From positions 1 to 64,000 of the IMG/VR virus record IMGVR_UViG_3300045988_150026: a stretch of DNA of 64,000 nt, one strand, 5' to 3'. Both the position numbers and the translations under genes were made by a program. Shown here piece after piece: positions 1 to 49,077 of this stretch. This stretch comes from a virus. Every line of letters begins with the position of its first letter. Position 1 is the stretch's first letter. Below the pieces are notes generated by a model. That model saw only the letters and a program-made list of their open reading frames with translations, made no database searches and was not told where the DNA came from.

Positions 1-183
1 ACAAGTCTGCCTGCTTATAGGCAATAAAAAATATGTGGTAGCTTGCGACATTGTAATAGTTAGGTCTGTTCAATCCTTCATAGTGTGTATAAAGCACACT
101 GTAAAAATCAAAAAAAAATAAGAAATAAGGGCGAACTGTACGATTCTCGTCCAATAATACAAGGTACAGAGGAAGGAGCCACC

Positions 184-774
184 ATGGCAAACAATCAGAT
201 TAATTTCAGTAAAATAACAAAAGAGGCAATGAGCCTCGTAAAAACTTTTAAAGAAACCGCCTTGAGAATGGCAGAGGAAGACATCCGGTATAAAGCTGAA
301 ATAAAACCCTTAAAAATAAAATTAGAGAAAATTCTGGCAGACCGCCAAAACGATCTCGATCAGGGCTTAGACCCTGACGAGGTAGCTCAAAAATACCCAC
401 GTCTTGAGGTGGATAATGCCCTTCGTAGGGCGGAACTCCGCCATAAAGAGGTTGTAGAACCTCTTAATAAAGCACTCCGGGATACATATGTTTTCATCCC
501 GGAAGGTCTTTATGAGGCTTATTGCCTCAAAATAAGAGAGGGTAAAAGGGGGGATTTTTTAAATTGCATTAAGCAGTTCCTCGAATCCCTCGGAATAGAG
601 GGCTGTCGACAGGGGCAAGTTTCCAAGTTTGCGGAATCAATGTCCGATAAACTGGGAGCAAAGTATGCCTCCAGTAAAAAAATTGTAAACGACGGTGTTT
701 TTGTCGTCGCCATGAATAAGAACGGTTTCAATAAACTGTTCATGGCAATCTTCTGTGACACGTTTGTAAAATAG
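184..774 (+). CDS. hypothetical protein
   Basis: 196 aa. ATG 184 preferred to track start 85 because GGAAGGAG lies just upstream. No motif recognised. Locally higher GC. Confidence 0.6.
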   Translation: MANNQINFSKITKEAMSLVKTFKETALRMAEEDIRYKAEIKPLKIKLEKILADRQNDLDQGLDPDEVAQKYPRLEVDNALRRAELRHKEVVEPLNKALRDTYVFIPEGLYEAYCLKIREGKRGDFLNCIKQFLESLGIEGCRQGQVSKFAESMSDKLGAKYASSKKIVNDGVFVVAMNKNGFNKLFMAIFCDTFVK

Positions 775-815
775 CGTGTCGCAATGAAAACTCCTAGGTA
801 CGAGTATAAACTGCC

Positions 816-869
816 TTTTCTGTCTTGCGGTGGAAGTCCGCAACTGATGAGCATAAGCGAAACAGAAAG
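816..869 (+). ncRNA. type III hammerhead ribozyme, predicted cleavage after C824
   Basis: TTTTCTGTC|TTGCGG-TGGAAGT-CCGCAA-CTGATGA-GC-ATAA-GC-GAA-ACAGAAAG. GUC site, CUGAUGA and GAA cores, G10.1-C11.1 and A15.1-U16.1 are present. Stem I 6 bp, stem II 2 bp, stem III 8 bp. Confidence 0.8.
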
Positions 870-946
870 CCTGGAGAATCAAGGGTTTGAAATAGAATAA
901 AAATATGGTAAAATAAAGAAAGGAGATGAAAAAAGGAGGAAAAGAG

Positions 947-1231
947 ATGATCGTATATTATAAGCTTAAAAAAGTCCTGGAATCACAGGGGAAAAGTTTC
1001 TCTGATTTATGTGAAGCAGGACTTTCCATAAATATGCCAAAAAGGTTGGAGACAAATAAGAACGTAAGTATGGATACAATAGACAAAATCTGTACTTATT
1101 TAAAAGTCCAGCCAGGGGATATTATGGAGTGGATTGATGAGAGCAAAGCAGAAGAGTCAAAAATTCAAAATGAGATTCAAGCTCTTCAGGCAAAAATAAA
1201 AGAACTTGAAAGAGCAAAAGGAAAGTTATAA
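947..1231 (+). CDS. XRE/Cro-type HTH protein with C-terminal coiled coil
   Basis: 94 aa. RBS AAAGGAGG before ATG 947. HTH-like DTIDKICTYLKVQPGDIMEWI. Paralogous to 1440..1724. Confidence 0.65.
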   Translation: MIVYYKLKKVLESQGKSFSDLCEAGLSINMPKRLETNKNVSMDTIDKICTYLKVQPGDIMEWIDESKAEESKIQNEIQALQAKIKELERAKGKL

Positions 1232-1244
1232 GGAGGAGAGGATT

Positions 1245-1421
1245 ATGACAGAAAAAGAAATCAGAATTTTTAAATCTAATGCAGAAGCAATCTGCAATAT
1301 ATATAAACGCATTGTAGAAGACCCTGTAATTAGAAAGGAGTGTATAGACTCAGAACTTGAGTCTATAAATCACCTTGTTAAGGTGAATGAAGCCTTGGCA
1401 TTGGGAAAGGAATTGAAATAA
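1245..1421 (+). CDS. hypothetical protein
   Basis: 58 aa. GGAGGAGAGG RBS before ATG 1245. Confidence 0.5.
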   Translation: MTEKEIRIFKSNAEAICNIYKRIVEDPVIRKECIDSELESINHLVKVNEALALGKELK

Positions 1422-1439
1422 AATTAAAGGAGGAAAATT

Positions 1440-1724
1440 ATGAAAACAAATTTTTCTCGCCTTTTTTCAAAGATAACTTCTGAGGGCTTAACCCAAAAGG
1501 AGTTTAAAGAAGAGGCGTGTATAAGTTCTGGGACTCTTATGAAAATGCTTCACAACGAGTCCGTGACTACAGATAGTATCTGTAGGATTTGCGATTTCTT
1601 CAAGTGTATGCCGGAAGAAATTATGGAATGGATTCCGGATGAAAACTATGAAGAAATCACAAGAGAGAAAGAGGCGGTTCAGGCACAAATAGCCGAACTG
1701 CAAAAGAAACTGAAAAAGATGTAA
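1440..1724 (+). CDS. XRE/Cro-type HTH protein, paralog of 947..1231
   Basis: 94 aa. AAGGAGG RBS. DSICRICDFFKCMPEEIMEWI matches the paralog. Coiled-coil tail. Confidence 0.65.
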   Translation: MKTNFSRLFSKITSEGLTQKEFKEEACISSGTLMKMLHNESVTTDSICRICDFFKCMPEEIMEWIPDENYEEITREKEAVQAQIAELQKKLKKM

Positions 1725-1727
1725 AAA

Positions 1728-1770
1728 ATAGCACCAGCAGATAGAAAAATCTGTTTAGGTGCTATTTTTA
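1728..1770 (+). terminator. rho-independent terminator
   Basis: ATAGCACC (1728-1735) pairs with GGTGCTAT (1758-1765), followed by a T run. Confidence 0.7.
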
Positions 1771-1808
1771 TACCCAAAAAACAAAAAAAGATAAGGAGAA
1801 TAAAAATT

Positions 1809-2045
1809 ATGAAGAAAAAAATTACAGAGTTATACTACACATTCAAGAACCATTTAAACAAAGAAGAAAAAGCAGAAATTAAATGCATGCTTTTTCAGTT
1901 CAAAGGAAAACAACGGATAACTCACCGCCCATATATCACGGGCAGTGAGAGAGTCCGTGACACAGCCTATGAATTAGGCTATCAAGTCACAACAAAAAGA
2001 AACAATCTCGGGTACTATGAAGTATATCCGAACACAGTATTTTAG
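1809..2045 (+). CDS. hypothetical protein
   Basis: 78 aa. AAGGAGAATAA RBS. Confidence 0.6.
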   Translation: MKKKITELYYTFKNHLNKEEKAEIKCMLFQFKGKQRITHRPYITGSERVRDTAYELGYQVTTKRNNLGYYEVYPNTVF

Positions 2046-2062
2046 GAAGGGAGAACAGCATT

Positions 2063-2248
2063 ATGGAAAGTCTGACACTCATATATTCCCGGTCAAGAAC
2101 ACCGAGAAAACACCCAAAGCCGAAATCAGAAAAATACTATTTCCGGAAAGCGGCAAGAGAAATGGTCAAATATTTTTTAATCTTTCTTTTGTTTATTGGA
2201 TTGTATATTGTATTGCTGATTCTACTTTCAGCATTCAATGTGCTGTAA
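2063..2248 (+). CDS. small basic protein with C-terminal transmembrane helix
   Basis: 61 aa. GGGAG RBS. Hydrophobic stretch YFLIFLLFIGLYIVLLILL. Overlaps an alternative-frame ORF 2017..2280. Confidence 0.4.
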   Translation: MESLTLIYSRSRTPRKHPKPKSEKYYFRKAAREMVKYFLIFLLFIGLYIVLLILLSAFNVL

Positions 2249-2339
2249 ACAGAACTGATAAAATAAAAAACAAAACATAAGATTCAAAGGGAACTGTGCA
2301 AATTCTCCCAACGCAAAGGCACAGAGAAAAGGAGATATT

Positions 2340-2684
2340 ATGAAGAAAATGAAAAAGGTGTTCTGGTTCAGCAGACATGAAATGACAGAAGAACAGAGAG
2401 CAGCACTTGGAGACTGCGAAATTATCCAGTGCAACCGCTCAATTAATTCTGCCTTTGAGGTACAGGAAGAAGCAAGGGAATGTGACATTTTAGCGATTGT
2501 TGCACCTATAAATTTACAGAAGCAATTTTTAAAAATTGCAGAAGGCAGACCTGTAATAATGGCTGTTAATGACCGGGTTCTGATTCCGCAGGAAGACGGA
2601 AGCGAAGGCAAGGTTGCTTTCCGTTTCGTAAAATGGGAACAACTTATTAAGATCGAAGTTGTAAAGAAAGACTTCAAGATTTAA
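2340..2684 (+). CDS. hypothetical protein
   Basis: 114 aa. AAAGGAG RBS. Confidence 0.6.
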   Translation: MKKMKKVFWFSRHEMTEEQRAALGDCEIIQCNRSINSAFEVQEEARECDILAIVAPINLQKQFLKIAEGRPVIMAVNDRVLIPQEDGSEGKVAFRFVKWEQLIKIEVVKKDFKI

Positions 2685-2704
2685 AAGGGAAAGGAGCAAG
2701 GGAA

Positions 2705-2953
2705 ATGAAAAAAGAACGGATCTTTATTATTTCAAACGCAAAGGCAGACTTGTTCAAAGAGTACTGTCGGCAGTTGCAGATTGATACAATAACTACTGCA
2801 TATGATGAGAAGAATAGATATTTTTCTTGTCTTATGACAGATCAGGAACTTTCGGAAGCGAAAGCGTTCTGTGATATGTGGTGTAGACCGGAACGGAAAG
2901 AAAACCCGTGTTTGATTTACATTATTATAGAAGAAACTCGGATTCTTCTGTAA
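2705..2953 (+). CDS. hypothetical protein
   Basis: 82 aa. AAAGGAG RBS. Confidence 0.55.
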   Translation: MKKERIFIISNAKADLFKEYCRQLQIDTITTAYDEKNRYFSCLMTDQELSEAKAFCDMWCRPERKENPCLIYIIIEETRILL

Positions 2954-2960
2954 ATACATA

Positions 2961-2989
2961 TTGAAAATACAACAAATATGATGTATAAT
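2961..2989 (+). promoter_or_regulatory. sigma-A-type promoter of the toxin-antitoxin operon
   Basis: TTGAAA (2961-2966), 17-nt spacer, TATAAT (2984-2989), about 30 nt before the HigB-like gene. Confidence 0.6.
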
Positions 2990-3020
2990 ATGTATATACA
3001 AAAGAGAAAGGTAAAAGAAT

Positions 3021-3359: not shown

Positions 3360-3689
3360 ATGAGTAAATTTTTTGAAGAGACAATGAGAGGCTTGCTTGA
3401 AGCTGTTGAAATTGAAAAAGGAAATGTAAAACTCACAGAAAGAAAAGGAATGCCAGCTCCTACTTATTATGTAGCAGAAGATAATAATGAACTCATTGAT
3501 AAAATTATTGAGATTCGTAAAAGCGAAAACATTTCTCAAGCGGAACTTGCAGAAATGACCGGAAATAGTCAACAGGCAATATCACGATTTGAAAAAAAAT
3601 CTCATAATGCATCAATGAATATGTTTTCAAGCATTATAAATGCTTTAGGGTATGAAGTTCAACTTGTAAAGAAGGCAAATGCAAATTAA
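3360..3689 (+). CDS. higA: XRE-family HTH antitoxin, HigA-like
   Basis: 109 aa. HTH ISQAELAEMTGNSQQAISRFE. Starts 4 nt after the toxin stop. Confidence 0.7.
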   Translation: MSKFFEETMRGLLEAVEIEKGNVKLTERKGMPAPTYYVAEDNNELIDKIIEIRKSENISQAELAEMTGNSQQAISRFEKKSHNASMNMFSSIINALGYEVQLVKKANAN

Positions 3690-26014: not shown

Positions 26015-26845
26015 ATGAACACAAACTTAGCAACAGTAATTCCGTTTTATAAGAAAAAGAATAACGGCTTACATGTAGCAAATTTTGATAAAGCAAATGT
26101 AAAAGATTTTATAAAGAAACCACCAGTGTCAACAAAAATGGAATGCTTAAGATCACGAGACGAAATATTATCTGTATATAAGATTTTGCTTCAGAGAGTA
26201 AAATCTGCACAAACAGAAAATAAAGAAAAGAATGCAATGCGTAATCTAACGATGTATTTATGTGCAATCAATATTGGATTGAGAGGTGGGGACTTCTGTA
26301 AGCTAAAATGGAAAGATGTGTATGACGATAATTGGAACATCAGAAAGCAACAACAGTTTGTTCCAGAAAAAACAACTTACAGAGATAATGAAGGACATGT
26401 TATAAAAAGAAAATATATAACACTAAGATATGACGGAGATTTTCGGTTCGCAATATCAAATTGGAAAAGGTGGTTAGATTCACATAACATGAGTCCAAGT
26501 TTAAATGACTTCTTATTCCCGTCAAACAAACAAGATGCAATATCCGAAAAATCATGGTATGATATTGTGGAAGAAGTAAGAATTGAAGCCGGCATCAAAA
26601 GAAAGATAGGAACGCATGGACTCAGGAAGACGTATGGACATTCCTATTATAAAGCGTCTTCGGACAAAGAAAAGGCACTGATCCAATTAATGCTTATCTT
26701 TGGACATTCCGATATGAGAATTACATTAAGGTATATTTGCATATCAGATGAAGAGATTATGGAAGCACAGGAAAGAATGTGTATTTTTTCAAATGAGTCA
26801 AATTTTTCTGAAGATGTGGAAATAATAACTGGAAACGGAGATTGA
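26015..26845 (+). CDS. tyrosine recombinase / phage integrase
   Basis: 276 aa. GLRGGD (Arg box), HGLRKT (HxxR), GHSDMRITLRY (His...Tyr) catalytic pattern. Confidence 0.85.
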   Translation: MNTNLATVIPFYKKKNNGLHVANFDKANVKDFIKKPPVSTKMECLRSRDEILSVYKILLQRVKSAQTENKEKNAMRNLTMYLCAINIGLRGGDFCKLKWKDVYDDNWNIRKQQQFVPEKTTYRDNEGHVIKRKYITLRYDGDFRFAISNWKRWLDSHNMSPSLNDFLFPSNKQDAISEKSWYDIVEEVRIEAGIKRKIGTHGLRKTYGHSYYKASSDKEKALIQLMLIFGHSDMRITLRYICISDEEIMEAQERMCIFSNESNFSEDVEIITGNGD

Positions 26846-26848
26846 AAA

Positions 26849-27016
26849 ATGGAAGGATTTATGAACGAGCCTGAAAATATAAAATGGAACGATGAAGATA
26901 TTATAAAAGATCTTGGCGTATACAACGACAAAAGGATTGTAGCAAAGAGATATAATATCACGGTGAAAGAAATAACAGAAATCATACGGAGGCACGAGAA
27001 TGTTTCAAAGAGGTGA
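26849..27016 (+). CDS. small HTH-like protein, possible excisionase or recombination directionality factor
   Basis: 55 aa. IVAKRYNITVKEITEIIRRH looks helix-turn-helix. Sits immediately after the integrase. The function is inference only. Confidence 0.35.
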   Translation: MEGFMNEPENIKWNDEDIIKDLGVYNDKRIVAKRYNITVKEITEIIRRHENVSKR

Positions 27017-27278
27017 TGTTGTTTACATTTTGGAAAACAACTTAAGTGTGAAGCAAGCAAAGGTGATGAACAGACAAGGGGATTTATATACGATTCAACT
27101 AATTGGCTCCTGTGGAGCATTCAGGGTTTCAGAAAGCAGATTGTTTGAATCTGAAGATGCAGCCATAAAAAGTAAAAAGATATATGACAGAGTAAATGCG
27201 GACGAGGTTGGATATTTGGATTCTCAGAAAAATCAACATCCAACTTTATATGATTATGATACAGGGAAGAAAAAATAA
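27000..27278 (+). CDS. hypothetical protein
   Basis: 92 aa. CGGAGG RBS. Confidence 0.55.
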   Translation: MFQRGDVVYILENNLSVKQAKVMNRQGDLYTIQLIGSCGAFRVSESRLFESEDAAIKSKKIYDRVNADEVGYLDSQKNQHPTLYDYDTGKKK

Positions 27279-27284
27279 TAAAGC

Positions 27285-27320
27285 AAAGACGATACTTATT
27301 TTGTATCGTCTTTTTTATTT
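27285..27320. terminator. bidirectional terminator between convergent genes
   Basis: AAAGACGATAC pairs with GTATCGTCTTT, flanked by A and T runs. Overlaps the stop of the minus-strand repressor gene. Confidence 0.7.
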
Positions 27321-27619
27321 TCCAGATCTTCAATTGTGTTCTTGATTAATTCAATAAACTCATCAGAGGAGATAAGAGAATTAAGATAAATCTGTGTCTT
27401 TCTGAGATCCACGCCATTAGAAGCATTTTCAAATTTAAATAAATCATTTGGTGTGCAATCTAATATGATACATAATTTTTCAAGAACATCAAAATTAATG
27501 CTATTTGCTGTGCCATTGCATAATTTCAAAACTGTCGGTTTGGATACTCCTAACAGTTTTGCAAGACTTGATTTGGAAATATGCTTGTCTTTTAATGCAT
27601 CGTTTAATAAAAAATCCAT
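27296..27619 (-). CDS. XRE-family CI-like repressor; only credible minus-strand gene
   Basis: 107 aa. HTH ISKSSLAKLLGVSKPTVLKLCNG. AGGAGGA RBS. Divergent from the operator-rich region. Confidence 0.75.
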   Translation of the reverse strand: MDFLLNDALKDKHISKSSLAKLLGVSKPTVLKLCNGTANSINFDVLEKLCIILDCTPNDLFKFENASNGVDLRKTQIYLNSLISSDEFIELIKNTIEDLENKKDDTK

Positions 27620-27678
27620 GAAAGTTATCCTCCTTGTTGTATATGTAAAGGATATAATATATCATATCATAAAATATA

Positions 27679-27748
27679 TTTTACTGGTAGTAAAAAATAA
27701 TTTACCAAAATGTAAAAATAACTTGACTTATGGTAAAAGATATTTTAC
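27679..27748. promoter_or_regulatory. three operator-like inverted repeats sharing TTTAC/GTAAA half-sites
   Basis: TTTTACT-GGT-AGTAAAA (27679-27695), TTTAC-CAAAAT-GTAAA (27701-27716), GTAAAA-GATA-TTTTAC (27733-27748). Confidence 0.6.
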
Positions 27749-27751
27749 AAT
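27723..27751 (+). promoter_or_regulatory. rightward early promoter
   Basis: TTGACT, 17-nt spacer, TACAAT. The third operator lies in the spacer. Confidence 0.6.
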
Positions 27752-27797
27752 AAGAGCATAAAAGGTTAGCAATACATAAGAGAAAGGAGGTATACAT

Positions 27798-28202
27798 ATG
27801 GAAAAAGCAAAAAATTCTTTACATCGGTACGATGTAGTAGAGGCAGAAATAGTTTTACAAGAACCTACTGGTCATAGGCAGAAAAAGAAACGTCCATATG
27901 TAATTGTTGGCAATGAGTTAGGCACAACAACAGCTCCTACAGTGATTGCAATGCCTTTAACTCATGTGATTAAAAGAAAGAATATGCCAGTTCACGGTTG
28001 CATTCAAGCTAGAAGCGAAACTGGTTTGTCTCTATATTCAATGGTATTGGGCGAGCAACCTTGTACCCTAGATAAAGAGCATGAGATTCTTCGAAAGCTT
28101 GGAACAATTGAAAATAAAGAAGAAAGGAATCTTGTAAATCGAGTTTGCTTCAATACAATGTTCTATGGTGAAAATATTGATTGGAAGGAGGTACTGGCAT
28201 GA
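27798..28202 (+). CDS. MazF/PemK-family toxin-like protein
   Basis: 134 aa. YDVVEAEI...KKRPYVIVGNE...VIAMPLTH...MVLGEQPCTLDK fits the PemK/MazF pattern. Confidence 0.65.
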   Translation: MEKAKNSLHRYDVVEAEIVLQEPTGHRQKKKRPYVIVGNELGTTTAPTVIAMPLTHVIKRKNMPVHGCIQARSETGLSLYSMVLGEQPCTLDKEHEILRKLGTIENKEERNLVNRVCFNTMFYGENIDWKEVLA

Positions 28203-28474
28203 AGGTAATAGGAATCACTGTTAGTAAGGAAACGGCAAAGAGAATGATTGACGAAGCTCCTGGAGATACAGTCAAAATTTTTTATATGAACCGTGATAAT
28301 TATGTTCATAAAGAGACAATTACAAAAGAGAAATCAGAGGGGAAACGTCTGGTGGATCTTGCAAAAGACATTTCTTATGATGATATGGAAATGTTTGGGA
28401 TACTGTCGCTTTATGGAGAGATTACAAGCGAACGTGATATTTTGAGGAATATTGCATTCCCCAAAATAGAATAA
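28199..28474 (+). CDS. hypothetical protein translationally coupled to the MazF-like gene, candidate antitoxin
   Basis: 91 aa. ATGA overlap and GGAAGGAGG RBS. No motif recognised. Confidence 0.5.
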   Translation: MKVIGITVSKETAKRMIDEAPGDTVKIFYMNRDNYVHKETITKEKSEGKRLVDLAKDISYDDMEMFGILSLYGEITSERDILRNIAFPKIE

Positions 28475-28483
28475 CAGAACGGA

Positions 28484-28526
28484 TGTTCGTAAAGATATTG
28501 ACACGAACAAATGTTTGGAATATAAT
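28484..28526 (+). promoter_or_regulatory. consensus sigma-A promoter bracketed by an inverted repeat
   Basis: TTGACA (28498-28503), exactly 17 nt, TATAAT (28521-28526). TGTTCGT (28484-28490) and ACGAACA (28503-28509) flank the -35. Confidence 0.7.
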
Positions 28527-28532
28527 TGGTTA

Positions 28533-28866
28533 ATATAAGGGAATAAAAAAAGAAGAAAGTTGATAAGGACGGCAATCCACAACTTTCTTCCCAATACATA
28601 TATCACATAGAGAAGTCGGCAAACTTAACTATGCGACTACATTATTACATAAATGTATAAGCATAGTCAAGTTATTGTTGGTGTTTCTACCAATATTTCC
28701 CTGTAACTACAAACAACAGAATATGGGTCGATTCTTGTTCTATAGACATAGAGCATACATCAAAAACCATTTTATTTTGAAATGAGAATTTCAAGGTCTT
28801 TTTTGTGTACCCTTTTTTACAAACTCATGAGAATAAGTTGGTATCAGGAGAAAGGAGTGATCAATT
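28533..28866 (+). ncRNA. long untranslated leader or candidate ncRNA
   Basis: About 330 nt after the promoter with no convincing ORF. 11-bp perfect hairpin GAAGAAAGTTG/CAACTTTCTTC (28552-28562/28580-28590). TGAAAT-GAGA-ATTTCA hairpin (28778-28793) followed by T runs. Confidence 0.4.
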
Positions 28867-29466
28867 TTGGATTACATGATTTGCAACCACAAAAATGTGT
28901 ACATCAAGCTTTCGCCCAACGGAAGACCAGATACATGTGGCGAAAACGAAAAGGGAGAATTCGAATATTCAAAAGCCAGAAATATTTTGGACAATCTTCC
29001 AAAGACTCTCAAGAAGTTAAATTTTAAAGTAGAGGCAATTCCACAGATAGAAAATAAAGCAACACATAACCTAATAGATAAAGCCGTTATTAAAGATTTA
29101 TCTTCAAATATTACTTGCTGGATAGAAAAATTTGGAACTTGTGAAGACGTGCTGAATGAAGCACAGCAGCGTTATACAGAATTAATTAAAAGGCTTAAGA
29201 ATGTAGACAACGATATTCTCAATATCTTGCATACAATCGAACTAGAGAAGACAAAGGATATGTACAAAGGATGGTTGCTATACAAAGATATTAAAATTAA
29301 TCGAGAAAAGAGAAGAGAAATCAAAGATGAGTTATTGATTATTGAGAATGTAATTTCCGAAATAAATCCAAAATTAGTCTCAAGAGAACGAACAAGAAAA
29401 GCAATCGCTGGGTTATTAGGAAGAAAGTATAAATTTAGAATTGTAGAAGATGAGGAAGAAAGTTAG
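28867..29466 (+). CDS. hypothetical coiled-coil protein
   Basis: 199 aa. TTG start 8 nt after AGGAGTG, or ATG 28876. Confidence 0.55.
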   Translation: MDYMICNHKNVYIKLSPNGRPDTCGENEKGEFEYSKARNILDNLPKTLKKLNFKVEAIPQIENKATHNLIDKAVIKDLSSNITCWIEKFGTCEDVLNEAQQRYTELIKRLKNVDNDILNILHTIELEKTKDMYKGWLLYKDIKINREKRREIKDELLIIENVISEINPKLVSRERTRKAIAGLLGRKYKFRIVEDEEES

Positions 29467-29477
29467 AGGTGGTAACG

Positions 29478-30164
29478 ATGTATTTCACACAACAACAGTA
29501 TGACAGGATGATCATGACGCAAGAAGAAGCTGAAAAGATTGGGGAGAAATATCTGTCAAATAACATGGCAGAACTTAACAGTATTTTAAATGAGTTGATT
29601 AAGAAAAAACGGATGCCTAGGTTTTTTAATGATGATTTAAAAAGTCTTGGGTATTTAGTATTTACTCAGAGCATTGATACATACGATCCAAACCAAACTG
29701 CCTCTTTCAAAACCTATTTATGGGGAAATATTTGGAAAAAATTTTGGACATACTCAAGAGATTTAACAAATCCTATGAGATGTGCAAGAGAAATGCAATG
29801 GAACGAAGATGAAAAACGTTGGGAAGAAACCCCCGTATTTGACATTTCAATATTCGCTAGAATAAATGAGGATGATTCAAAGGAACTTTGGGAAAATTTC
29901 TCGGAAGACGTATCAATCGAAGACGAAGTAATGCAAGACCTTTTTTCAGATAGCTATAATGACTTCTCAAATGAAATGAAAACTTATTTGGATGGTCTTT
30001 CTGGTCTACAAAAAGAAATATTATACATGCTTGCGGATGGCTTTTCGCAAACAGAAATTGAGGATATCTTACATATTAATAAGGATATATACAATGACAG
30101 CACAAGTGCGATTAAAAATAATATAAGAACAAGAGAATTAAGGAGAAAATACAATGTTAAATGA
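29478..30164 (+). CDS. sigma-70-family RNA polymerase sigma factor
   Basis: 228 aa. Region 2-like SLGYLVFTQSIDTYDPNQTASFKTYLWGNIW. Region 4 HTH LSGLQKEILYMLADGFSQTEIEDIL. Confidence 0.6.
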   Translation: MYFTQQQYDRMIMTQEEAEKIGEKYLSNNMAELNSILNELIKKKRMPRFFNDDLKSLGYLVFTQSIDTYDPNQTASFKTYLWGNIWKKFWTYSRDLTNPMRCAREMQWNEDEKRWEETPVFDISIFARINEDDSKELWENFSEDVSIEDEVMQDLFSDSYNDFSNEMKTYLDGLSGLQKEILYMLADGFSQTEIEDILHINKDIYNDSTSAIKNNIRTRELRRKYNVK

Positions 30165-31635
30165 ATACAGATTAGAAACACTAAATATATCACAGTATAT
30201 GGAATCAGTAGAAGACGGTGACATTAAAGTAGATCAGGCAGTACAGCGTGCCTTCTGCTGGAGCAATGAAATGATTAACAATCTAATTTACTCAACAGTT
30301 GCAACGAAGAGAGTGTATATCCCAAATATAATTCTCGCAGAAGAAAACCATGACGATGGAACAACTCAAACTTATGTAGTGGATGGTGGTCAAAGAACAG
30401 AAGCAATCAGACGTTTTATTTTTGACGGATATAAAATTACCAGATCGATTAGAAATCGTTACATTGAATATCAGGATAATAAGATTGATGAAAATGGAAA
30501 AGTAGTTCGTGATGAAAATGGTGACATTGTAAAAGAGATTAAGGTTTTTGACCTCGTAAATAAGACGTATGATGATTTTCCAAAAGAGTTAAAGAAAAGG
30601 ATGGGCAAATGCAAGCTTGCTGCGGCAGTTTATCAGGACTGTACCCCAGAAGAAACTAGTGATCTCGTACTGTTATACAACTCAACTGTGAGCATGTCAC
30701 CGTCACAGAAAGCATTGACATATATTGGTGCTTTCGCTGAAAGAATTAAGAATATTACAACTCATGACTTTTTAATTAATGGGACAACCCTTTCCGAGAC
30801 AGATAAAAAGAAAGGAAACTGGGAGCGAACAATATCCGAGTGTGTTATGGCAGCGAGATATTTTGACGACTGGAAAAAGAACCCAAAAGATATTTGTAAA
30901 TATTTAAACGACAATGCGAAAGAGAAAGATTTTTCTGTGGTTGAAGGGTATTTTGATAAACTTAGTCGGTTTTCTAATAAGCTTCAGAATATGAAGATCG
31001 TAGAACTATTCTCGGCAAAAAATTTGCCAGCATGGATGTTGGTGATGAAAGAATTAGAGAATAAGGAAGTATCAGATAAAACATTTAGAGAATTCTTGTT
31101 GTCATTTGATTCAGCCAAAGGAACAGAAATAGATGGAAGCACGTGGTATGAATTAGAAAATAATAAACATACAAAAGACAAAAAGTTAATTTTAGCAAAA
31201 GCAAATTACATAAACAAACTCCTTTCAGATTACATAAACGGAAATCCTGAAGTTGACGAAGAAAAAAATTTTGAAAAAATAAATTCAGATGATTCTGAAA
31301 TGGAAACCATTGATTTTGTGAAACAGTTCGTTGATCCGGATTGTACAGACGAAGATATTGATGATTATTTTGGATATCTTGAATCATGCATAAAAGATCT
31401 CAGAATTGTGAAGGCTGATTCTCCTGTAGTTGCACCAGAAAATGAAAATGCAATTATCGCAGTTGTTGCTTATGCATATAAACATGATATTGATATGGAT
31501 TTGTGGTTGCAGAGGTATTCAATTAGCCATAAAACTTTCCCAGAAGAAATGTCGCAAGGAGATAGATATAAAACTATGTTACATAGTCTAGTAAATTTTC
31601 TTAAAATGCAAAAGAAAGTGGGTACAAAAGTATGA
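30154..31635 (+). CDS. DUF262 (ParB-like / GmrSD N-terminal-type) domain protein
   Basis: 493 aa. VDQAVQRAFCWS...YVVDGGQRTEAI corresponds to the QR...DGQQR motifs. No HNH or DUF1524 motif seen in the C-terminus. Confidence 0.65.
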   Translation: MLNEYRLETLNISQYMESVEDGDIKVDQAVQRAFCWSNEMINNLIYSTVATKRVYIPNIILAEENHDDGTTQTYVVDGGQRTEAIRRFIFDGYKITRSIRNRYIEYQDNKIDENGKVVRDENGDIVKEIKVFDLVNKTYDDFPKELKKRMGKCKLAAAVYQDCTPEETSDLVLLYNSTVSMSPSQKALTYIGAFAERIKNITTHDFLINGTTLSETDKKKGNWERTISECVMAARYFDDWKKNPKDICKYLNDNAKEKDFSVVEGYFDKLSRFSNKLQNMKIVELFSAKNLPAWMLVMKELENKEVSDKTFREFLLSFDSAKGTEIDGSTWYELENNKHTKDKKLILAKANYINKLLSDYINGNPEVDEEKNFEKINSDDSEMETIDFVKQFVDPDCTDEDIDDYFGYLESCIKDLRIVKADSPVVAPENENAIIAVVAYAYKHDIDMDLWLQRYSISHKTFPEEMSQGDRYKTMLHSLVNFLKMQKKVGTKV

Positions 31636-32264
31636 GTTATTGGACATACATACAAGGAACAATAGTTGTTTCTCCTATGGGAAGAACACAAGCAGAGAAA
31701 ACTTACATATTAAATACTGTGCTTGATCATCTTCCTAATGTTACAGGATCAGAAAGAGACATGCATATTACCTTCATGCAAATGCCAGGAACTAATAGCA
31801 GCTCATCCCGAGATGAATTCGGAATGAGAACGAATAATCTTAGAACAAGATATGGAAATCGGTCGTATGAAAAAGGTTGGTTGGAAGTACAGGATGACTA
31901 CATGATTATTGTAAACGGCAGTCTCAGAGATAGAGAACTTGAAGAAACGTATAGAGAATTCATGAACTGGATCTGTCGGTTAGCAAAGAGAGTGGATGTC
32001 TGGAATGTTCTTGTGAGAATCAAAGGATATGAAAAGGAAAAGGTCATCAATTATAGTGATTCTAACAATCCATTCTTACAGATGTTTGAAGATACTAGCT
32101 GGGTAAAATGTAGAAATGGAGAAGAACATCCTGAACCTAACTGGTGTGAATATCTCATGTGGAATCGAGGTAAGAACACAGATATGCCAGCATTATTAGC
32201 ATATAAGTATTACGAAGATGAAGAAAATGACAAATATGTGGAATCAATTTTGAAAGGAGAATAA
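31632..32264 (+). CDS. hypothetical protein
   Basis: 210 aa. ATGA overlap with the DUF262 gene. Confidence 0.6.
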   Translation: MSYWTYIQGTIVVSPMGRTQAEKTYILNTVLDHLPNVTGSERDMHITFMQMPGTNSSSSRDEFGMRTNNLRTRYGNRSYEKGWLEVQDDYMIIVNGSLRDRELEETYREFMNWICRLAKRVDVWNVLVRIKGYEKEKVINYSDSNNPFLQMFEDTSWVKCRNGEEHPEPNWCEYLMWNRGKNTDMPALLAYKYYEDEENDKYVESILKGE

Positions 32265-32269
32265 AAGAC

Positions 32270-32569
32270 ATGCGGAAATATTTTAATACTCAGTTCGACA
32301 TTGGTGATGCTGTTTGGACAGTAGAGCTTGGAAGTCATTCCGGAAGATATCATGTATGTAAAAGATATGTGGAATATTTCAAGCTGGTCACAGGCGATGT
32401 GCTTTATGGATTTACTTACAATATTGAAGTTTCAAAATGTCAGTGTTTTCATACAGAAGAAATGGCAGAGCATTGTGCTGAAGTTTGGAATAAGAAGTTA
32501 GAAAAGATCGAAGAACAACACAATTCGGAGAATAAAGACTTGGAAGAAAGGAGTGGCTGTTATGCCTGA
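32270..32569 (+). CDS. hypothetical protein
   Basis: 99 aa. GGAGAATAA junction RBS. Confidence 0.6.
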   Translation: MRKYFNTQFDIGDAVWTVELGSHSGRYHVCKRYVEYFKLVTGDVLYGFTYNIEVSKCQCFHTEEMAEHCAEVWNKKLEKIEEQHNSENKDLEERSGCYA

Positions 32570-32786
32570 TATTACAATGTGTTTATGTACAGAATGCAAA
32601 ATGAAAGCTACTTGCTACAGAGCAAGGGCTAATCCAGATTTCTTCTATCAGAGCTATGCGGATTTTACGGAGTTCTGCAAGAGGGAAGAATATAAATACT
32701 ACATAGAAGATCGTAAAAAAGAAACAAGCTGTTGGAGTGTTGTGAAGAAATCGATCTTTCATAAAACGGAAAAGAAGGTGAATTAA
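32562..32786 (+). CDS. Cys-rich hypothetical protein
   Basis: 74 aa. AAGGAG RBS before ATG 32562. Confidence 0.55.
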   Translation: MPDITMCLCTECKMKATCYRARANPDFFYQSYADFTEFCKREEYKYYIEDRKKETSCWSVVKKSIFHKTEKKVN

Positions 32787-32798
32787 TTAAGTGATTGG

Positions 32799-33065
32799 AT
32801 GCTAATTTTATTGATTACATACGCTATGATCAGTCTTTGCTTGTCACTTTGTTGGCTCATTCTCCATGGAGGAGAATTCATTTCTTTTATCAAGAGTTGG
32901 ACGAGTAATAAAAATTGGTTTGGCAAGTTATACATGACACCTATAATTATTTTCTGTCTTCCGGCAATTATTTTGACATTTTTATTTGAAATAATTGTAC
33001 TGATTGTAGCAGAAATTGCTTTACTCGGAATAAAGAAAGAATATAGGAATGATAAAAAAGGGTGA
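32799..33065 (+). CDS. membrane protein, about 3 transmembrane helices
   Basis: 88 aa, strongly hydrophobic. Confidence 0.55.
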   Translation: MLILLITYAMISLCLSLCWLILHGGEFISFIKSWTSNKNWFGKLYMTPIIIFCLPAIILTFLFEIIVLIVAEIALLGIKKEYRNDKKG

Positions 33066-33073
33066 TGAAAACA

Positions 33074-33238
33074 ATGATTCAAACGAAAATTTTACAGGCG
33101 GTGCTGTATGCACTTACAACAATTTTTAGTGTAATATTCATGATTAGAACAAAAGAGAAGGAAAATAAATATATTTGGTTTGGCATGGCTTTATGTTGGA
33201 TCGGAGCATTTATTGGAAAGATTGGAGAAATAATCTAG
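33074..33238 (+). CDS. small membrane protein
   Basis: 54 aa. Two hydrophobic segments. Below the track cutoff. Confidence 0.45.
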   Translation: MIQTKILQAVLYALTTIFSVIFMIRTKEKENKYIWFGMALCWIGAFIGKIGEII

Positions 33239-33304
33239 ATTAAAGCAAGCAAATTAGCCAATTAGAAGAAAGTCACATTTCAAATGAGAAAGGAGAATAA
33301 AATA

Positions 33305-33688
33305 ATGGCAACATTGAAAAATTATTACGCAGTAGCAGAAACAGTACAGAGATACGGAGGTAGGTATTATTACGCAATTTACAATGATGGTAATACATAT
33401 ACAGTAGGAGATAAGGTGATTGTGTCTGGAGCTTGTGATGATGTTCTTGAGATTACTAATATTCTTACACCAGAAGAAATTTCAAGAAATATCACAGCCG
33501 AAGGAATCTGTAAAGTCGATACGTCAGCTTATGATGCCCGTGTTCAGAGACGTAAAAAAGCAGATAAGCTTAAGAAAGAAATGGACAAAATGATCAAGGC
33601 AATGGATGAATCTAAGAAATACGAAATGTATGCAGAAGAGAGCCCTGCTTTAGCGGAGAAGCTGAATGAATATAAGACACTTGTGTAA
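33305..33688 (+). CDS. hypothetical protein
   Basis: 127 aa. GGAGAATAA RBS before ATG 33305. Confidence 0.6.
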   Translation: MATLKNYYAVAETVQRYGGRYYYAIYNDGNTYTVGDKVIVSGACDDVLEITNILTPEEISRNITAEGICKVDTSAYDARVQRRKKADKLKKEMDKMIKAMDESKKYEMYAEESPALAEKLNEYKTLV

Positions 33689-33702
33689 GGAGAATATTAT
33701 AT

Positions 33703-34647
33703 ATGAAGTATAAAGTTGGAGATAAAGTTAGAGTCAGAAGCGATTTGACAGAAGGTAAAGAATATGGTGGAGTTTTTGTTATTTCGGATATGTCTGAATT
33801 GCGTGGAAAAATAGTAACCATTGCACGAATATTATATGATGATTGTACGCCTTTAAAGTCGTGCTATACAATTAAAGAAATGGAATGTTGTTGGACAGAT
33901 GACATGTTTGAACCTGTGCCTTATGATGGCATAATGGATGCTATTAGATATAGTGAAGATATACAGAAAATGATCGATGATATGCATAAATTCTTTTTTC
34001 ATAGCGTAATTAAAGATTTGACAAATGAGATAAAAGGAGAGGGCAAAAATAAAATGAACGACAAGAAGACGAATAATAAGAAAAAGAAGATGACACAGAG
34101 AGAAAGACTTGAAATGAAACTTGAAGAGTGTAGAAATAAATCTATTGTACATTCAGTGGAAGTTGTCGTGCCAGACAAAGTTGTAAAGGTTGCAATTGAA
34201 AGATGGTATGAATTGGAAGAATATAAACTTGTATGTGATCCACAGGACACATTTAGTGTTGAAAGAGCTGTAATCCTTGCTTTAGTAAAAAACGATAATT
34301 CAGATCTTACGGCTGAAGGTATTGAGCATGAAGCTGATCAGTTTAAATTCTACAAGAGTAAGATGGAAGTTCTTAAAAATGCAATGAAAGTATATAAAGC
34401 ACAGCTTGCCATTAAAGAATATGATGAAAAAGAAAAAGTCGAGAGGGAAAGAATCCGAGAGAATAAGAAAAAAAATAAAATTGCTCAGAAGAAGAGAAGA
34501 GCTGAAAGACTTGCGGAAGAAAAACTGAAAGAAACAAAGGAAGCAGCGAAGATTTATGCTGAAGCACTGAAATCAGCTTTGTGTGGTTATGAAATTTCAG
34601 AAGATACGGTTGAGAACATGGCAAAAGATATGAATATAAGAGTGTAA
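33703..34647 (+). CDS. hypothetical protein with K/E-rich coiled-coil C-terminus
   Basis: 314 aa. AAGGAGAA RBS. Confidence 0.65.
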   Translation: MKYKVGDKVRVRSDLTEGKEYGGVFVISDMSELRGKIVTIARILYDDCTPLKSCYTIKEMECCWTDDMFEPVPYDGIMDAIRYSEDIQKMIDDMHKFFFHSVIKDLTNEIKGEGKNKMNDKKTNNKKKKMTQRERLEMKLEECRNKSIVHSVEVVVPDKVVKVAIERWYELEEYKLVCDPQDTFSVERAVILALVKNDNSDLTAEGIEHEADQFKFYKSKMEVLKNAMKVYKAQLAIKEYDEKEKVERERIRENKKKNKIAQKKRRAERLAEEKLKETKEAAKIYAEALKSALCGYEISEDTVENMAKDMNIRV

Positions 34648-34654
34648 GTGGTAG

Positions 34655-34696
34655 CAGGTGCGTAGAGAATAAGTAATATACAACTCTGCGCACCTG
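34655..34696 (+). terminator. GC-rich hairpin, probable terminator
   Basis: CAGGTGCGTAGAG pairs with CTCTGCGCACCTG (one mismatch). Weak T tail. Confidence 0.5.
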
Positions 34697-34748
34697 TGTA
34701 AAAATGGATGTATTAATTATAGCATGTATTACAGCAGAAAGGAAGTAG

Positions 34749-35006
34749 GTGATTACTATAGAATTCGTTTATGTTTTGATTATTTTGGCATATATTTGTG
34801 TCATTATGATTAGCTTCGTGGACTTTATGAATTGTAATTTCACATACTTTAGTTATAAGGCAAATTATGAAAGATGGAATAAACTAAATTGGTTTGGCAT
34901 CGTATTTATAACTTCTGTGATTTGTATTTTGTTCTTTCCGTTGTCGATCGGATATGGTATTTGCAGATTTATTCGTTGGGTTTTCACGGTTGGAAGGAAA
35001 GATTAA
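34749..35006 (+). CDS. membrane protein
   Basis: 85 aa. GTG start after AAAGGAAG. Two hydrophobic segments. Confidence 0.5.
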   Translation: MITIEFVYVLIILAYICVIMISFVDFMNCNFTYFSYKANYERWNKLNWFGIVFITSVICILFFPLSIGYGICRFIRWVFTVGRKD

Positions 35007-35008
35007 TT

Positions 35009-35221
35009 ATGAAAATCAAATTCTCAAATGGAAGTAGTTTGGAATCAATCGAATCAACAGATAGTAAAAGAAGTAAACGTGCAGAAAAGATTTTGTATTA
35101 CAAAAAGAATCCATATAAATTAATAAAATATTTATACGGAGAGAACTTACATTTATATCAAAAGTTATGGATAAAATTTATTATACTTGCAGAGAAATGG
35201 AGACAATTATGGAAAATGTAG
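35009..35221 (+). CDS. hypothetical protein
   Basis: 70 aa. GGAAGGAAAG RBS before ATG 35009. Confidence 0.5.
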   Translation: MKIKFSNGSSLESIESTDSKRSKRAEKILYYKKNPYKLIKYLYGENLHLYQKLWIKFIILAEKWRQLWKM

Positions 35222-35469
35222 AAGAGAAGACTGTAGAAGTAAAAAGAAAAATTCATAAATTCTATTGCGATAAATGTGGAGAATATTTAGGTGAGAGTGA
35301 AGAGTTTGATGATGAATATTATGAGGAAATCGGATATGTTACTCAACGTGTTGTTGTAAATGGAAAACAATACATCTATAAAAGACATCTGTGTAGCAAA
35401 TGTAAAGAAAATTTCTATAAAGATCTAGGCAATGTTTTGGAAATTGTTGGTTTTGTAAATGTTGGATAA
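35209..35469 (+). CDS. zinc-ribbon protein
   Basis: 86 aa. Cysteine pairs CDKC...CSKC. GGAGA RBS before ATG 35209. Confidence 0.55.
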   Translation: MENVEEKTVEVKRKIHKFYCDKCGEYLGESEEFDDEYYEEIGYVTQRVVVNGKQYIYKRHLCSKCKENFYKDLGNVLEIVGFVNVG

Positions 35470-35471
35470 TT

Positions 35472-35780
35472 ATGCAGATTATTAGTATGCCAAGATGTTC
35501 TGGAAAAACAATGCTTGCAATTAAGAGGACGAGAGATATGAAAAGAAGAGAAAGGATACAGTTGACCAAATGGGCAGATAAATTGTCTGATAAAGACTTG
35601 GAAGATGCATATTATGATGCAGTTTATGACTGTTTAGGAAGTGAAACAGAAGAAATGTATGAACTAGGTTATGATCCAATAGATATTGCAGAACAAGAAA
35701 AATGTGAAAAGTATCTTAGCGAAAAGGCTGATGTGTTGGAAGAACTATGTGAAAGACGAGGAATTAAGTTATGGGAATAA
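35472..35780 (+). CDS. hypothetical protein
   Basis: 102 aa. N-terminal PRCSGKT looks like a P-loop remnant. Confidence 0.5.
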   Translation: MQIISMPRCSGKTMLAIKRTRDMKRRERIQLTKWADKLSDKDLEDAYYDAVYDCLGSETEEMYELGYDPIDIAEQEKCEKYLSEKADVLEELCERRGIKLWE

Positions 35781-35801
35781 AGAATAAAGGAGTATAGACC
35801 A

Positions 35802-36362
35802 ATGGGAACTAAAGATAATACTTATGCAAACACAGGAAAGAGATTATATTTTCTATCAGACGATGTAGATAATGAATCAATTGGACAACTTACATGGAAC
35901 ATATTGCATCAGCTTGCAGAAGATGATGAGAAAGATAAGAAAGAAAAGGATTATAAACGTGAACCAATTAAAATCTACATCAATTCGTATGGTGGAGTAG
36001 TTTATGACATGTGGGGATTGATTGACATTATTGTAAATAGCAAAACACCAATTTATACATATTGTACCGGTTATGCCATGAGTGCAGCTTTCAAGATTTT
36101 CTTAGCAGGGCATAAGCGATATTGTTACAAGCACTCCACATTCATGATTCATCAACCTGTTTGTTGGATTAGTGGAAAATATACAGATATTAAAGAAAAC
36201 ATGGCAGAACATGATCGAATGAATGAATATATTATCCAGTATATTCTTGATAGAACATATTTTAAAAAAGAAGAACTGGATAATATTTGGGAAAAGAAAC
36301 AAGACTTTTATATTAATTCAGAAGATGCTGAGAAATATGGAATTGTTAATGAAGTTTTGTAA
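35802..36362 (+). CDS. clpP: ClpP-family serine protease
   Basis: 186 aa. INSYGGVVYDMWGLIDII...CTGYAMSAAFKIFLAG...MIHQP matches the ClpP Ser/His core. Confidence 0.8.
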   Translation: MGTKDNTYANTGKRLYFLSDDVDNESIGQLTWNILHQLAEDDEKDKKEKDYKREPIKIYINSYGGVVYDMWGLIDIIVNSKTPIYTYCTGYAMSAAFKIFLAGHKRYCYKHSTFMIHQPVCWISGKYTDIKENMAEHDRMNEYIIQYILDRTYFKKEELDNIWEKKQDFYINSEDAEKYGIVNEVL

Positions 36363-36380
36363 AACGAATGTGGTGATTAA

Positions 36381-37511
36381 ATGAGAGTATATAAAGATAA
36401 ACAATTTCTTGTCTTTGATTTTGAAGACGGAAGAAATGTTAAGTATGATTTTGCGACCAAGACAGCGATCGGAATCAAAGGAAAACCTGTAAAAGATTTG
36501 CGAAGTCAGTTAAGTGGAATTTCAATGAACCGAGTAATTGAAAATTGTGACGATAAGAAGTATGCAAAATTCTTGAATTTTGTAATGAGAGCAGAATCTT
36601 CATATCATGAAATTTGGAATATCGGAACTGTACTTGATAGAGTTCCATTTTATTCAAGATTTGAGCAATTATTTTCTGCTGGTATAGATGATATTGTTGA
36701 CGTAAGAGAACAAAACTTGAAAAGTTTTAAATATTCTATTGAAGACATTCCAAAATCACTTCTTAAAATATGTAGAAAATATTCTATAAAAATTTCCAAC
36801 GACACTATTAGATTTTATAAAGAAAACCCAAACGCATATTGTATTGCCTATAAGTTAGATTATTTAAGTTTGGATTATTACGACATCTATAAAATATGGA
36901 AAACATCAGAAAACATGTATGATGCAAACGCAAAATCATATTTTAACATCCTTGTAAATGAGTACGGATATAATGCAAAAGATTTATGGCTATACATAGA
37001 TAGAATAAAGACATTTGAAGCAATTGAAGATATGGCTTTTCTTATTCGTGAATTATGTGATTATGCGGACATGATGAGGCAGCTTAGTAATAAGTACGAC
37101 AAGTATCCAAGACATTTTCTTACAACTCATAAAATTGCATGTAGAAATTATGACAGAATGAAGAAAGAATTTTCAGAAGAGTTATTTAGAAAAAGAATTA
37201 AAAAAGAATATGAATGTTCATTTGGAGAATATGTATTTATTTATCCTAAGTCTACTCAAGATATCAAGGATGAGGCAGCCTGCCAAAGTAATTGTGTTAG
37301 TTCTTATATAGATAAGGTTATTGATGGATACTGTCATATATTATTCTTGAGAAAAAAGAACAGTCCAAAAGAAAGTCTTGTAACAATAGAGGTTAGAAAT
37401 GATCAGATTGTCCAGGCTAAAAGAAGATTCAACGATGATGTAACAGAAGAACAGAAAGAAGTAATTGATAAGTTCAATAAGAAATTTGGAAAGGAGATTA
37501 AGGCAGCATGA
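36381..37511 (+). CDS. PcfJ-like protein
   Basis: 376 aa. C-terminal CQSNCVSSYIDKV..GYCHILFLRKK...LVTIEV resembles the PcfJ-like family, from memory. Confidence 0.5.
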   Translation: MRVYKDKQFLVFDFEDGRNVKYDFATKTAIGIKGKPVKDLRSQLSGISMNRVIENCDDKKYAKFLNFVMRAESSYHEIWNIGTVLDRVPFYSRFEQLFSAGIDDIVDVREQNLKSFKYSIEDIPKSLLKICRKYSIKISNDTIRFYKENPNAYCIAYKLDYLSLDYYDIYKIWKTSENMYDANAKSYFNILVNEYGYNAKDLWLYIDRIKTFEAIEDMAFLIRELCDYADMMRQLSNKYDKYPRHFLTTHKIACRNYDRMKKEFSEELFRKRIKKEYECSFGEYVFIYPKSTQDIKDEAACQSNCVSSYIDKVIDGYCHILFLRKKNSPKESLVTIEVRNDQIVQAKRRFNDDVTEEQKEVIDKFNKKFGKEIKAA

Positions 37512-47080: not shown

Positions 47081-47085
47081 ATGTA

Positions 47086-47493: not shown

Positions 47494-47505
47494 GGGAATA
47501 AACAG

Positions 47506-49065: not shown

Positions 49066-49077
49066 AAGGTAAATATT

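Follow-up and report, generated by a model that had tools for sequence, protein, structure and literature searches.

A type III hammerhead ribozyme motif with a two-base-pair stem II at a gene boundary in 64 kb of viral DNA

We find that a 64,000-nt stretch of viral DNA (positions 1 to 64,000 of the IMG/VR virus record IMGVR_UViG_3300045988_150026; this whole stretch is referred to as the window) carries, at positions 816-869 of the + strand, what by sequence and pairing is a genuine type III hammerhead ribozyme. It lies in the sense orientation between two coding sequences (CDSs), one for a 196-aa protein (184-774, +) and one for a 94-aa helix-turn-helix (HTH) protein of the Cro/C1 type (947-1231, +). 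We consider it highly probable that this element is a real member of a phage-borne hammerhead subfamily with a short stem II, and that it cuts between C824 and U825 and thereby parts the upstream cistron from the HTH unit. The window would be annotated with one ribozyme, its cut predicted at 824/825.

All parts of the hammerhead fold can be assigned to the + strand sequence of 816-869, TTTTCTGT-C-TTGCGG-TGGAAGT-CCGCAA-CTGATGA-GC-ATAA-GC-GAA-ACAGAAAG. Stem III, which has 8 bp including one U816-G869 wobble, is formed by a 5' arm at 816-823 (UUUUCUGU) and a 3' arm at 862-869 (ACAGAAAG), with U823 as U16.1 paired with A862 as A15.1. Between these arms are the predicted cleavage site C17 at 824, its position taken from the alignment of the core; stem-loop I at 825-843, with 6 Watson-Crick bp (UUGCGG/CCGCAA, 825-830 with 838-843) and the 7-nt loop UGGAAGU; the catalytic core strand C3-U4-G5-A6-U7-G8-A9 (CUGAUGA, 844-850); stem-loop II at 851-858, with the pairs G851-C858 (G10.1-C11.1) and C852-G857 (C10.2-G11.2) and the loop AUAA; and the core nucleotides G12-A13-A14 (GAA, 859-861). 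Each of the 16 pairs is standard, the core positions are all intact and the cleavage nucleotide H17 is C, that is, not G. The layout, found by the pair check and likewise by a type III descriptor, is that of type III, with stems I and II capped by hairpin loops and stem III open.

With both strands of the 64-kb window searched, the element at 816-869 is the sole match to the type III descriptor. Composition-matched first-order Markov simulations of the window (300 in all) gave 0.24 matches per simulated window with a relaxed descriptor (≥3 bp in stem I, ≥2 in stem II and ≥3 in stem III) and 0.003 with a descriptor that asks for ≥5 bp in stem I and ≥6 in stem III. A second hammerhead-like match at 62720-62792 (GUC...CUGAUGA...GAAAC; 9.7 bits, E ~1) was rejected as a chance match; it falls inside a CDS (61981-62841) and its stems I and II are poor.

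The window motif has many relatives, which make up a subfamily that numbers over 100 loci in IMG/VR and no fewer than 15 in cellular genome assemblies. A loose pattern searched in IMG/VR, CTGATGAGC-N3-10-GCGAAAC, gave several matches with a gap of 4 that are built like the window motif, and a second pattern, AGTC-N5-CTGANGAG-N6-CGAAA, matched at least 119 loci. The second pattern demands neither U16.1 nor H17, nor any pairing in stem I or stem III; among the 120 matches listed, 114 have U16.1 and a base other than G at H17, with 4 bp or more in stem I and 3 bp or more in stem III. In the build common to the members, the cleavage triplet is GUC, stem I has 6 bp, loop I has 7 nt (U....AGU), stem II is GC/GC and carries an A..A tetraloop, and stem III is variable.

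Covariation in the subfamily supports the hammerhead structure. We aligned 71 unique 58-nt segments with the window (alignment A1), and the result is nearly gap-free, with some columns fixed by the search pattern. With the hammerhead structure placed on this alignment, 85.5% of the cells are paired and changes on both sides are found in 12 of the 16 pairs. The covariation score is 0.498, compared to 0.124 in shuffles, none of which reached 0.498 in 500 trials, and compared to at most 0.158 when the pairing partners are slid. Stem I is 99.8% paired across the 72 unique sequences, with both-side changes in five of its six pairs, and stem III shows such changes in seven of eight pairs, while it varies freely in sequence and ranges from 3 to 10 bp in length. 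Stem II is constant across the subfamily and is thus uninformative for covariation; the core strand is also constant, except for N7, its core positions being fixed by the search pattern. At positions that the pattern left free, 71 of the 72 sequences have C10.2-G11.2, all 72 have the A at the end of loop II and at least 90% have the A at its start.

A covariance model built from the 71 other phage sequences, with the window left out (model R2), matches the window with 68.5 bits over the full model (positions 1-58 of 58; E ~2e-21), and there is no other match at E ≤1. The E values are rough due to a short calibration, which does not affect the bit score. The original prediction, which had claimed a complete type III hammerhead at 816-869, is thus confirmed in its sequence, in all of its pairs and in its core positions, and is now joined by the model score and by the covariation of stems I and III in the homologues. 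It had also called the 2-bp stem II unusually short, and here we differ: two base pairs are the rule in this subfamily, and are common in bacterial and phage hammerheads (PMC3088659).

To place the subfamily beyond viruses, we also surveyed 596 Gb of species-representative genomes with a tighter pattern that additionally fixes C10.2 and G11.2. Only 29 loci matched, 15 of which hold true members (16 hits, 62-75 bits), mostly in metagenome-assembled genomes of gut or rumen Bacillota and Bacteroidota; given so few matches in this volume of cellular sequence, the subfamily is mainly phage-borne. Hammerheads of type I, in which stem III is capped and stem I is open, were seen at L044:453-472, at L058:12390-12409(-) and in L142, again with a 2-bp GC/GC stem II and with an A-rich or GAAA tetraloop, and thus the short stem II is not confined to the type III subfamily.

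The two hairpin loops also change together. Position 2 of loop I and position 3 of loop II (columns 20 and 43 of the alignment, 832 and 855 in the window) combine as A/G (58 sequences), G/A (9) or G/U (5), and none of the 72 departs from this; the window copy, with G832 and A855, obeys this rule. The class with G in loop I covers several stem I sequences and one type of stem I is found in both classes, although the signal could be raised by shared ancestry. Two loop bases, the U at the start of loop I and the A at the end of loop II, are constant in all 72 sequences. This pattern suggests a single tertiary pair between loops I and II. Natural hammerheads need loop-loop docking for fast cleavage (PMC3088659), and both the rule and the constant loop bases fit docking of this kind.

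Members of the subfamily are placed between genes. A Shine-Dalgarno (SD) sequence with the start codon of an open reading frame (ORF) of at least 45 codons follows within 60 nt on the same strand in 57 of the 72 members, but on the opposite strand in only 2 of 72, and an ORF ends within 60 nt upstream in 47 of 72, with a median gap of 20 nt on the upstream side and of 19 nt on the downstream side. In 25 of the 72 members, the SD, usually within ACGGAGG, lies in or beside the 3' arm of stem III with the start codon 4-12 nt later, an arrangement in which cleavage could unmask the ribosome-binding site of the next gene. Examples are found at L062:3037-3094(-) and in L156, L161, L167 and L181. The window copy is on the sense strand, begins 41 nt after the upstream stop codon and is separated from the next start codon by 77 nt, among the longer gaps in the subfamily, and it overlaps no SD. 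The flanking proteins across the subfamily are mostly small and without a Pfam match, and a few have an HTH or DnaJ domain. A specific association of the subfamily with HTH genes was considered and is unsupported, since HTH proteins are only a few of the 61 proteins encoded downstream.

Related gut phages have a hammerhead, a twister-P5 or nothing at the equivalent junction, and thus provide a natural comparison set in which the effect of cleavage on the flanking genes can be compared. On the side of the upstream gene, ten IMG/VR loci with a homologue of the 196-aa gene (58-64% identity) have different DNA directly after it, and no hammerhead directly follows the gene in its distant relatives L001-L010. 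A hammerhead does occur one gene further on in L001/L002, with a U4-to-C change in the core that caused the strict descriptor to miss it. This natural variant of the catalytic core (L001:3955-4012, which is L264:1318-1375) may be weak or inactive.

On the side of the HTH gene, homologues (hereafter XRE homologues) are found at 35 IMG/VR loci, four of which have a subfamily member upstream on the sense strand (L266, L264/L265 and L292). The hammerhead in L266 (L266:1383-1445; XRE homologue with 59% identity) lies 56 nt before the start codon; its stem I is 7 bp long and shows compensatory changes, a U is added after A9, stem II has 3 bp, and the 5' flank is shared with the window element (AAACTCCTAGG.A.GAGTATAAACTGCCTTTTCTGTC). 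L264/L265, which are the same contigs as L001/L002, hold the copy with the U4-to-C core change, and L292, on the same contig as L159, holds a consensus copy 465 nt upstream of the XRE homologue. No hammerhead was found in L263, L297 or a group with 47% identity. The 5' flank at 790-815 (+), an ACTC-N8-GAGT mini-hairpin (790-805) followed by ATAAACTGCC, is kept in the window, L266 and L292 despite their different upstream genes. The unit that moves may be slightly larger than the ribozyme and include this flank.

Junctions of this kind also hold ribozymes of other classes. In L001, the homologue of the 184-774 gene has a twister-P1-like element before it (46 bits, below gathering) and a Twister-P5 (45 bits, above the gathering score of 37.6) directly after it, at the junction that the hammerhead occupies in the window. 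Twister-P1-like elements precede the 184-774 homologue in L004 and L007 as well. The Rfam twister matches in relatives are at L001:2881-2947, L001:3594-3669, L004:2882-2948, L007:2886-2948, L263:392-453 and L159:2027-2086 (which is L292:142-201), those of the P1-like type scoring 44-56 bits, below gathering. Two pistol ribozymes are found in L161 on the - strand (L161:139-206 and L161:528-595; 68.4 and 56.3 bits, gathering score 34.5), ~1 kb from a subfamily hammerhead on the same strand. The window itself has no twister or pistol. Twister (P1, P5) and pistol differ from the hammerhead in fold and active site while sharing this kind of junction, and unrelated self-cleaving classes have been found to occupy equivalent phage sites (PMC6765202). 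The swap of ribozyme classes at one junction argues that cleavage itself is the selected property.

We then considered which transcript the window element would act on. The upstream gene (184-774) has no Pfam or PHROG match; homologues of its product are found in gut phage contigs at 58-66% identity. A 9-bp hairpin spans its stop codon (754-783, +; TGTGACACG, 12 nt, CGTGTCGCA), with no T-run after it, and could stabilise the 3' side of the upstream cleavage product. The spacer between this CDS and the HTH gene is 172 nt and no terminator-like site was found between the two genes on the + strand. An intrinsic terminator formed by the hairpin of stem I or stem III was ruled out, as a T-run is absent on either strand. 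Between the ribozyme and the HTH gene lies a promoter-like site (887-914, +; TTGAAA, a 16-nt spacer and TGgTAAAAT), a consensus match of the sigma-70 type with 10 of 12 hexamer positions and a TG extension. The HTH gene itself (947-1231) matches PF13443 HTH_26 (E 4.2e-13) and has GGAGG 7 nt before its ATG. Both flanking genes, the ORF at 184-774 and the HTH gene at 947, are as the original prediction described them.

The same prediction had put the hammerhead in the leader of this repressor-like gene. Were the ribozyme a true 5' leader, most of the HTH mRNA would begin further upstream and be cleaved at 825, and the resulting 5'-OH and hairpin would set its stability or translation. The lack of a terminator-like site before the HTH gene fits this idea, since read-through RNA would carry both genes, as do the hammerheads upstream of the XRE homologues in L266, L264/L265 and L292 and the many subfamily members in which the ribozyme directly abuts the SD of the next gene. 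However, a strong promoter-like site (887-914) separates the ribozyme from the start codon, and all of the XRE-homologue loci inspected have a promoter-like TAGAAT box (found by eye) and a palindrome downstream of the ribozyme position, including the ribozyme-free L263, L297 and 47% identity group. In addition, genes downstream of subfamily members mostly encode small proteins with no known domain, and few are HTH genes. The HTH gene thus appears, from these motifs, to have its own promoter, and we regard a role of the ribozyme as its leader as unlikely. Because the promoter-like site lies between the ribozyme and the HTH start, and does so likewise in relatives, it is more likely that the ribozyme forms the 3' end of the upstream transcript or cuts read-through RNA. 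The palindrome of the relatives (TCACAAAA..TTGTGA), found in L263, L264, L266, L267, L290 and L297 at ~1440-1490, looks like an operator; the promoter region of the window does not have it.

If the ribozyme forms the 3' end of the upstream transcript or cuts read-through RNA, transcription of 184-774 would run through the 172-nt spacer, which has no intrinsic terminator, and the RNA would fold into a three-way junction, with stems I and II probably docked by the contact between loops I and II, and would cut itself between C824 and U825. A hammerhead cut leaves a 2',3'-cyclic phosphate, predicted here on C824, and a 5'-OH, predicted here on U825. The upstream mRNA would end in the cyclic phosphate ~50 nt past its stop codon, preceded by the hairpins at 754-783 and 790-805, and the read-through RNA downstream would start with the 5'-OH, its first base, U825, already paired in the stem I hairpin. 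The upstream cistron would in this way be split from the HTH-regulator unit, leaving two RNAs with independent fates. Cleavage, the transcript map and the consequences for RNA stability and translation are what we infer for the window element; we argue these consequences from what is generally known of 3' exonucleases and of decay that depends on the 5' end, and the effect could go in either direction.

Several results weigh against a working ribozyme that separates these two transcripts. First, the Hammerhead_3 model of Rfam (RF00008) matches 806-879 (74 nt) over its full length (model positions 1-54) with 33.5 bits (E 2.8e-6), which is below the gathering score of 48.5. At the gathering level, Rfam has no match in the whole window; at E ≤1 nothing relevant is found in the whole window, and at E ≤10 only noise is found over 700-1000. 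The low RF00008 score is due to the short stem II, since the model expects ~12 nt in the stem II region compared to 4 nt here, and all core features are present. Two other members score 28.1 bits (L177) and 24.6 bits (L216) with this model; the whole subfamily falls under the RF00008 threshold and is thus missed by standard annotation. The Rfam cmscan with its filters misses the window hammerhead in 301 nt or in 64 kb and reports it in 74 nt, and thus a negative Rfam scan of a long window does not amount to absence of short-stem-II hammerheads.

Second, the minimum free energy (MFE) fold of 810-875 is not the hammerhead; it keeps stem III and rearranges the interior (-15.8 kcal/mol versus -12.2 kcal/mol when folded as the hammerhead), and shuffled sequences are just as stable (z-score -0.05). 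The gap between the MFE and the hammerhead fold for the trimmed motif is 1.9 kcal/mol in the window and has a median of 1.45 kcal/mol in the subfamily; as the gap is typical of the subfamily, the MFE fold is no mark against the window copy in particular. Third, the window's own lineage gives no covariation, because the motif is identical and the spacer essentially identical in all 20 close relatives. These relatives were obtained by exact-protein look-ups in ENA, Logan and NCBI gut metagenome assemblies and include contigs of 88-236 kb; beyond them, the closest relatives of the 196-aa protein share at most 66% identity with it. The exact 20-mer of core and stem II has no match in IMG/VR, a 42-mer has none in the species-representative genomes and BLASTN of window positions 1-3000 against GenBank phages gave no match; the lineage is known only from the ENA, Logan and NCBI metagenome assemblies. 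Fourth, most relatives with 47-59% protein identity have no hammerhead at the equivalent junction, which indicates that the element is dispensable. Fifth, the 77 nt to the HTH start and the intervening promoter-like site set the window copy apart from a typical member, and any effect on the HTH gene may be small. Finally, the role of bacterial and phage hammerheads in general is still unresolved (PMC6765202).

Some of these results would also be expected if the motif were a chance match or a decayed, inactive relic: the Rfam score under gathering, the MFE fold that differs from the hammerhead, the absence of the element from many relatives and the possibly inactivating U4-to-C change in L001/L002, which shows that copies can decay. 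We consider this very improbable, given that the core is intact with 16 of 16 standard pairs and the loop I/loop II rule is obeyed, that a model without the window scores it at 68.5 bits compared to a chance expectation of ~0.003 per window, and that the motif is identical in 20 of 20 copies retrieved from independent metagenomes. The original prediction would have yielded to a score below the gathering threshold together with absence of the motif at the same locus in related genomes; the Rfam score is indeed below gathering, but homologous hammerheads stand upstream of XRE homologues in L266, L264/L265 and L292.

The window element is a further hammerhead of a known kind at a known type of site, a gene boundary. 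It is identical to RF00008 in the core (C3U4G5A6N7G8A9, G12A13A14, A15.1-U16.1 and the GUC triplet) and has the same type III topology. It differs from the consensus of that family (clan CL00010) in stem II, which has ~12 nt in RF00008 and 2 bp with a 4-nt loop in the window, and it has a stem I of 6 bp with a conserved 7-nt loop; it also differs in its host, a DNA phage or mobile element rather than a viroid, satellite RNA, plant or animal genome. Bacterial and prophage hammerheads were reportedly described by De la Pena & Garcia-Robles in 2010 and by Jimenez et al. in 2011. Since 2010-2011, hammerheads have been known from regions between genes in bacteria and prophages (reviewed in PMC6155905); their stem II has 'often only two base-pairs', they are flanked by small genes of varying identity, and prophage examples with two base pairs in stem II cut themselves when transcribed in vitro (PMC3088659). 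The function proposed for prophage hammerheads is the processing of polycistronic RNA (PMC3088659; PMC6765202). Many of the short-stem-II examples of Perreault et al. 2011 use a loop I pseudoknot (PMC3088659), whereas none is evident in the window. The exact subfamily sequences were not found in the searchable literature or in the Perreault 2011 supplements, a search that did not take in Jimenez 2011 and De la Pena 2010. The possibly new elements are a sharply delimited subfamily, the loop rule that it follows and its place under the Rfam threshold, for which we claim no priority.

A broader reading, which we put forward tentatively and hold less likely than not, is that the subfamily is a distinct subclass outside the curated families, marked by a phage-borne type III fold, a constant 2-bp stem II and a contact of one specific pair between loops I and II (A-G, or G-A/G-U). 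It would be made up of boundary modules that can be swapped with twister or pistol and in which stem III masks the SD in about a third of the members, so that the cut would free the ribosome-binding site of the gene that follows; in the window, the module would define the 3' end of the upstream transcript and shield the promoter unit of an autoregulated Cro-like gene from read-through. Engineered insulators of the RiboJ type and SD-masking aptazymes (Hartig; Ogawa/Maeda) use cleavage that leaves a defined 5'-OH end with a hairpin. About a third of the natural members have the SD inside the 3' arm of stem III, like the engineered SD-masking designs, which are synthetic, but the window copy has no SD overlap. 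If SD masking by stem III is real, it would show in nature what engineered ribozyme insulators and switches do by design. The loop I/loop II rule and the SD inside stem III in many members are two regularities that can be tested. The systematic position of the subfamily under the Hammerhead_3 threshold amounts to an annotation gap, which a model from the 71 sequences could close.

The original prediction had further linked the hammerhead, as a speculation, to an RNA ligase and a kinase/HD protein at 57.7-60.6 kb. Both genes are present by domain match, the RNA ligase (PF09414) at 58422-59729 and an AAA_33 kinase with a weak HD match at 59729-60619, while the gene at 57746-58354 is an HNH endonuclease. 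If these proteins worked with the ribozyme, they would heal and seal its ends, for example to circularise or re-join RNA. Ends with a 2',3'-cyclic phosphate and a 5'-OH are compatible in principle with repair of the T4 Pnkp/Rnl type, which counts for this idea along with the presence of both genes in the window. However, the genes are 57 kb from the ribozyme, and no homologue of either the ligase or the kinase is found in 2.27 Mb from 260 loci, most of which were fetched by hammerhead patterns. Moreover, a Thg1-like tRNA-His guanylyltransferase gene in the window (46223-47080) points instead to a tRNA-repair toolkit, and tRNA repair is the usual role of such enzyme sets in phages. Spliced or circular products of prophage hammerheads were sought, and none found, by Perreault et al. 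(PMC3088659). The link to the ligase and kinase is thus unsupported speculation, to which we give almost no credence. An association with tRNA, as for theta/hepatitis delta virus-like ribozymes, was ruled out, as there is no tRNA in the window.

The ribozyme and its neighbours lie in DNA that may come from a phage, a phage-plasmid or another large mobile element; no phage structural protein was matched among the 17 ORFs scanned. The regions 26015-37511 and 46223-60619 hold a mixture of mobile-element, defence and RNA-repair genes, including an integrase (26015-26845), a GmrSD_N protein (30154-31635), a PcfJ-like protein (36381-37511) and two DNA methyltransferases (54405-56443). Two paralogous transposase-like genes of ~370 aa (44952-46067 and 51812-52915) match PHROG 506 (E 1e-132 and 1e-148); the length of their products suggests that they are TnpB-like, and such genes would carry 3' guide-RNA regions. 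A weak Rfam match to the Gut-1 RNA (3574-3652, - strand; 27.3 bits, gathering score 50, E 0.38) is probably noise.

Just 5' of the 184-774 gene, a very stable long hairpin occupies positions 1-94 of the window and extends ~49 nt further upstream (L012:2005-2148). It matches no Rfam family, and in L012 it follows ~1.6 kb without called genes. The hairpin has a perfect 19-nt arm pair and a 14-nt arm pair, with an MFE of -60.5 kcal/mol and a z-score of -7.65.

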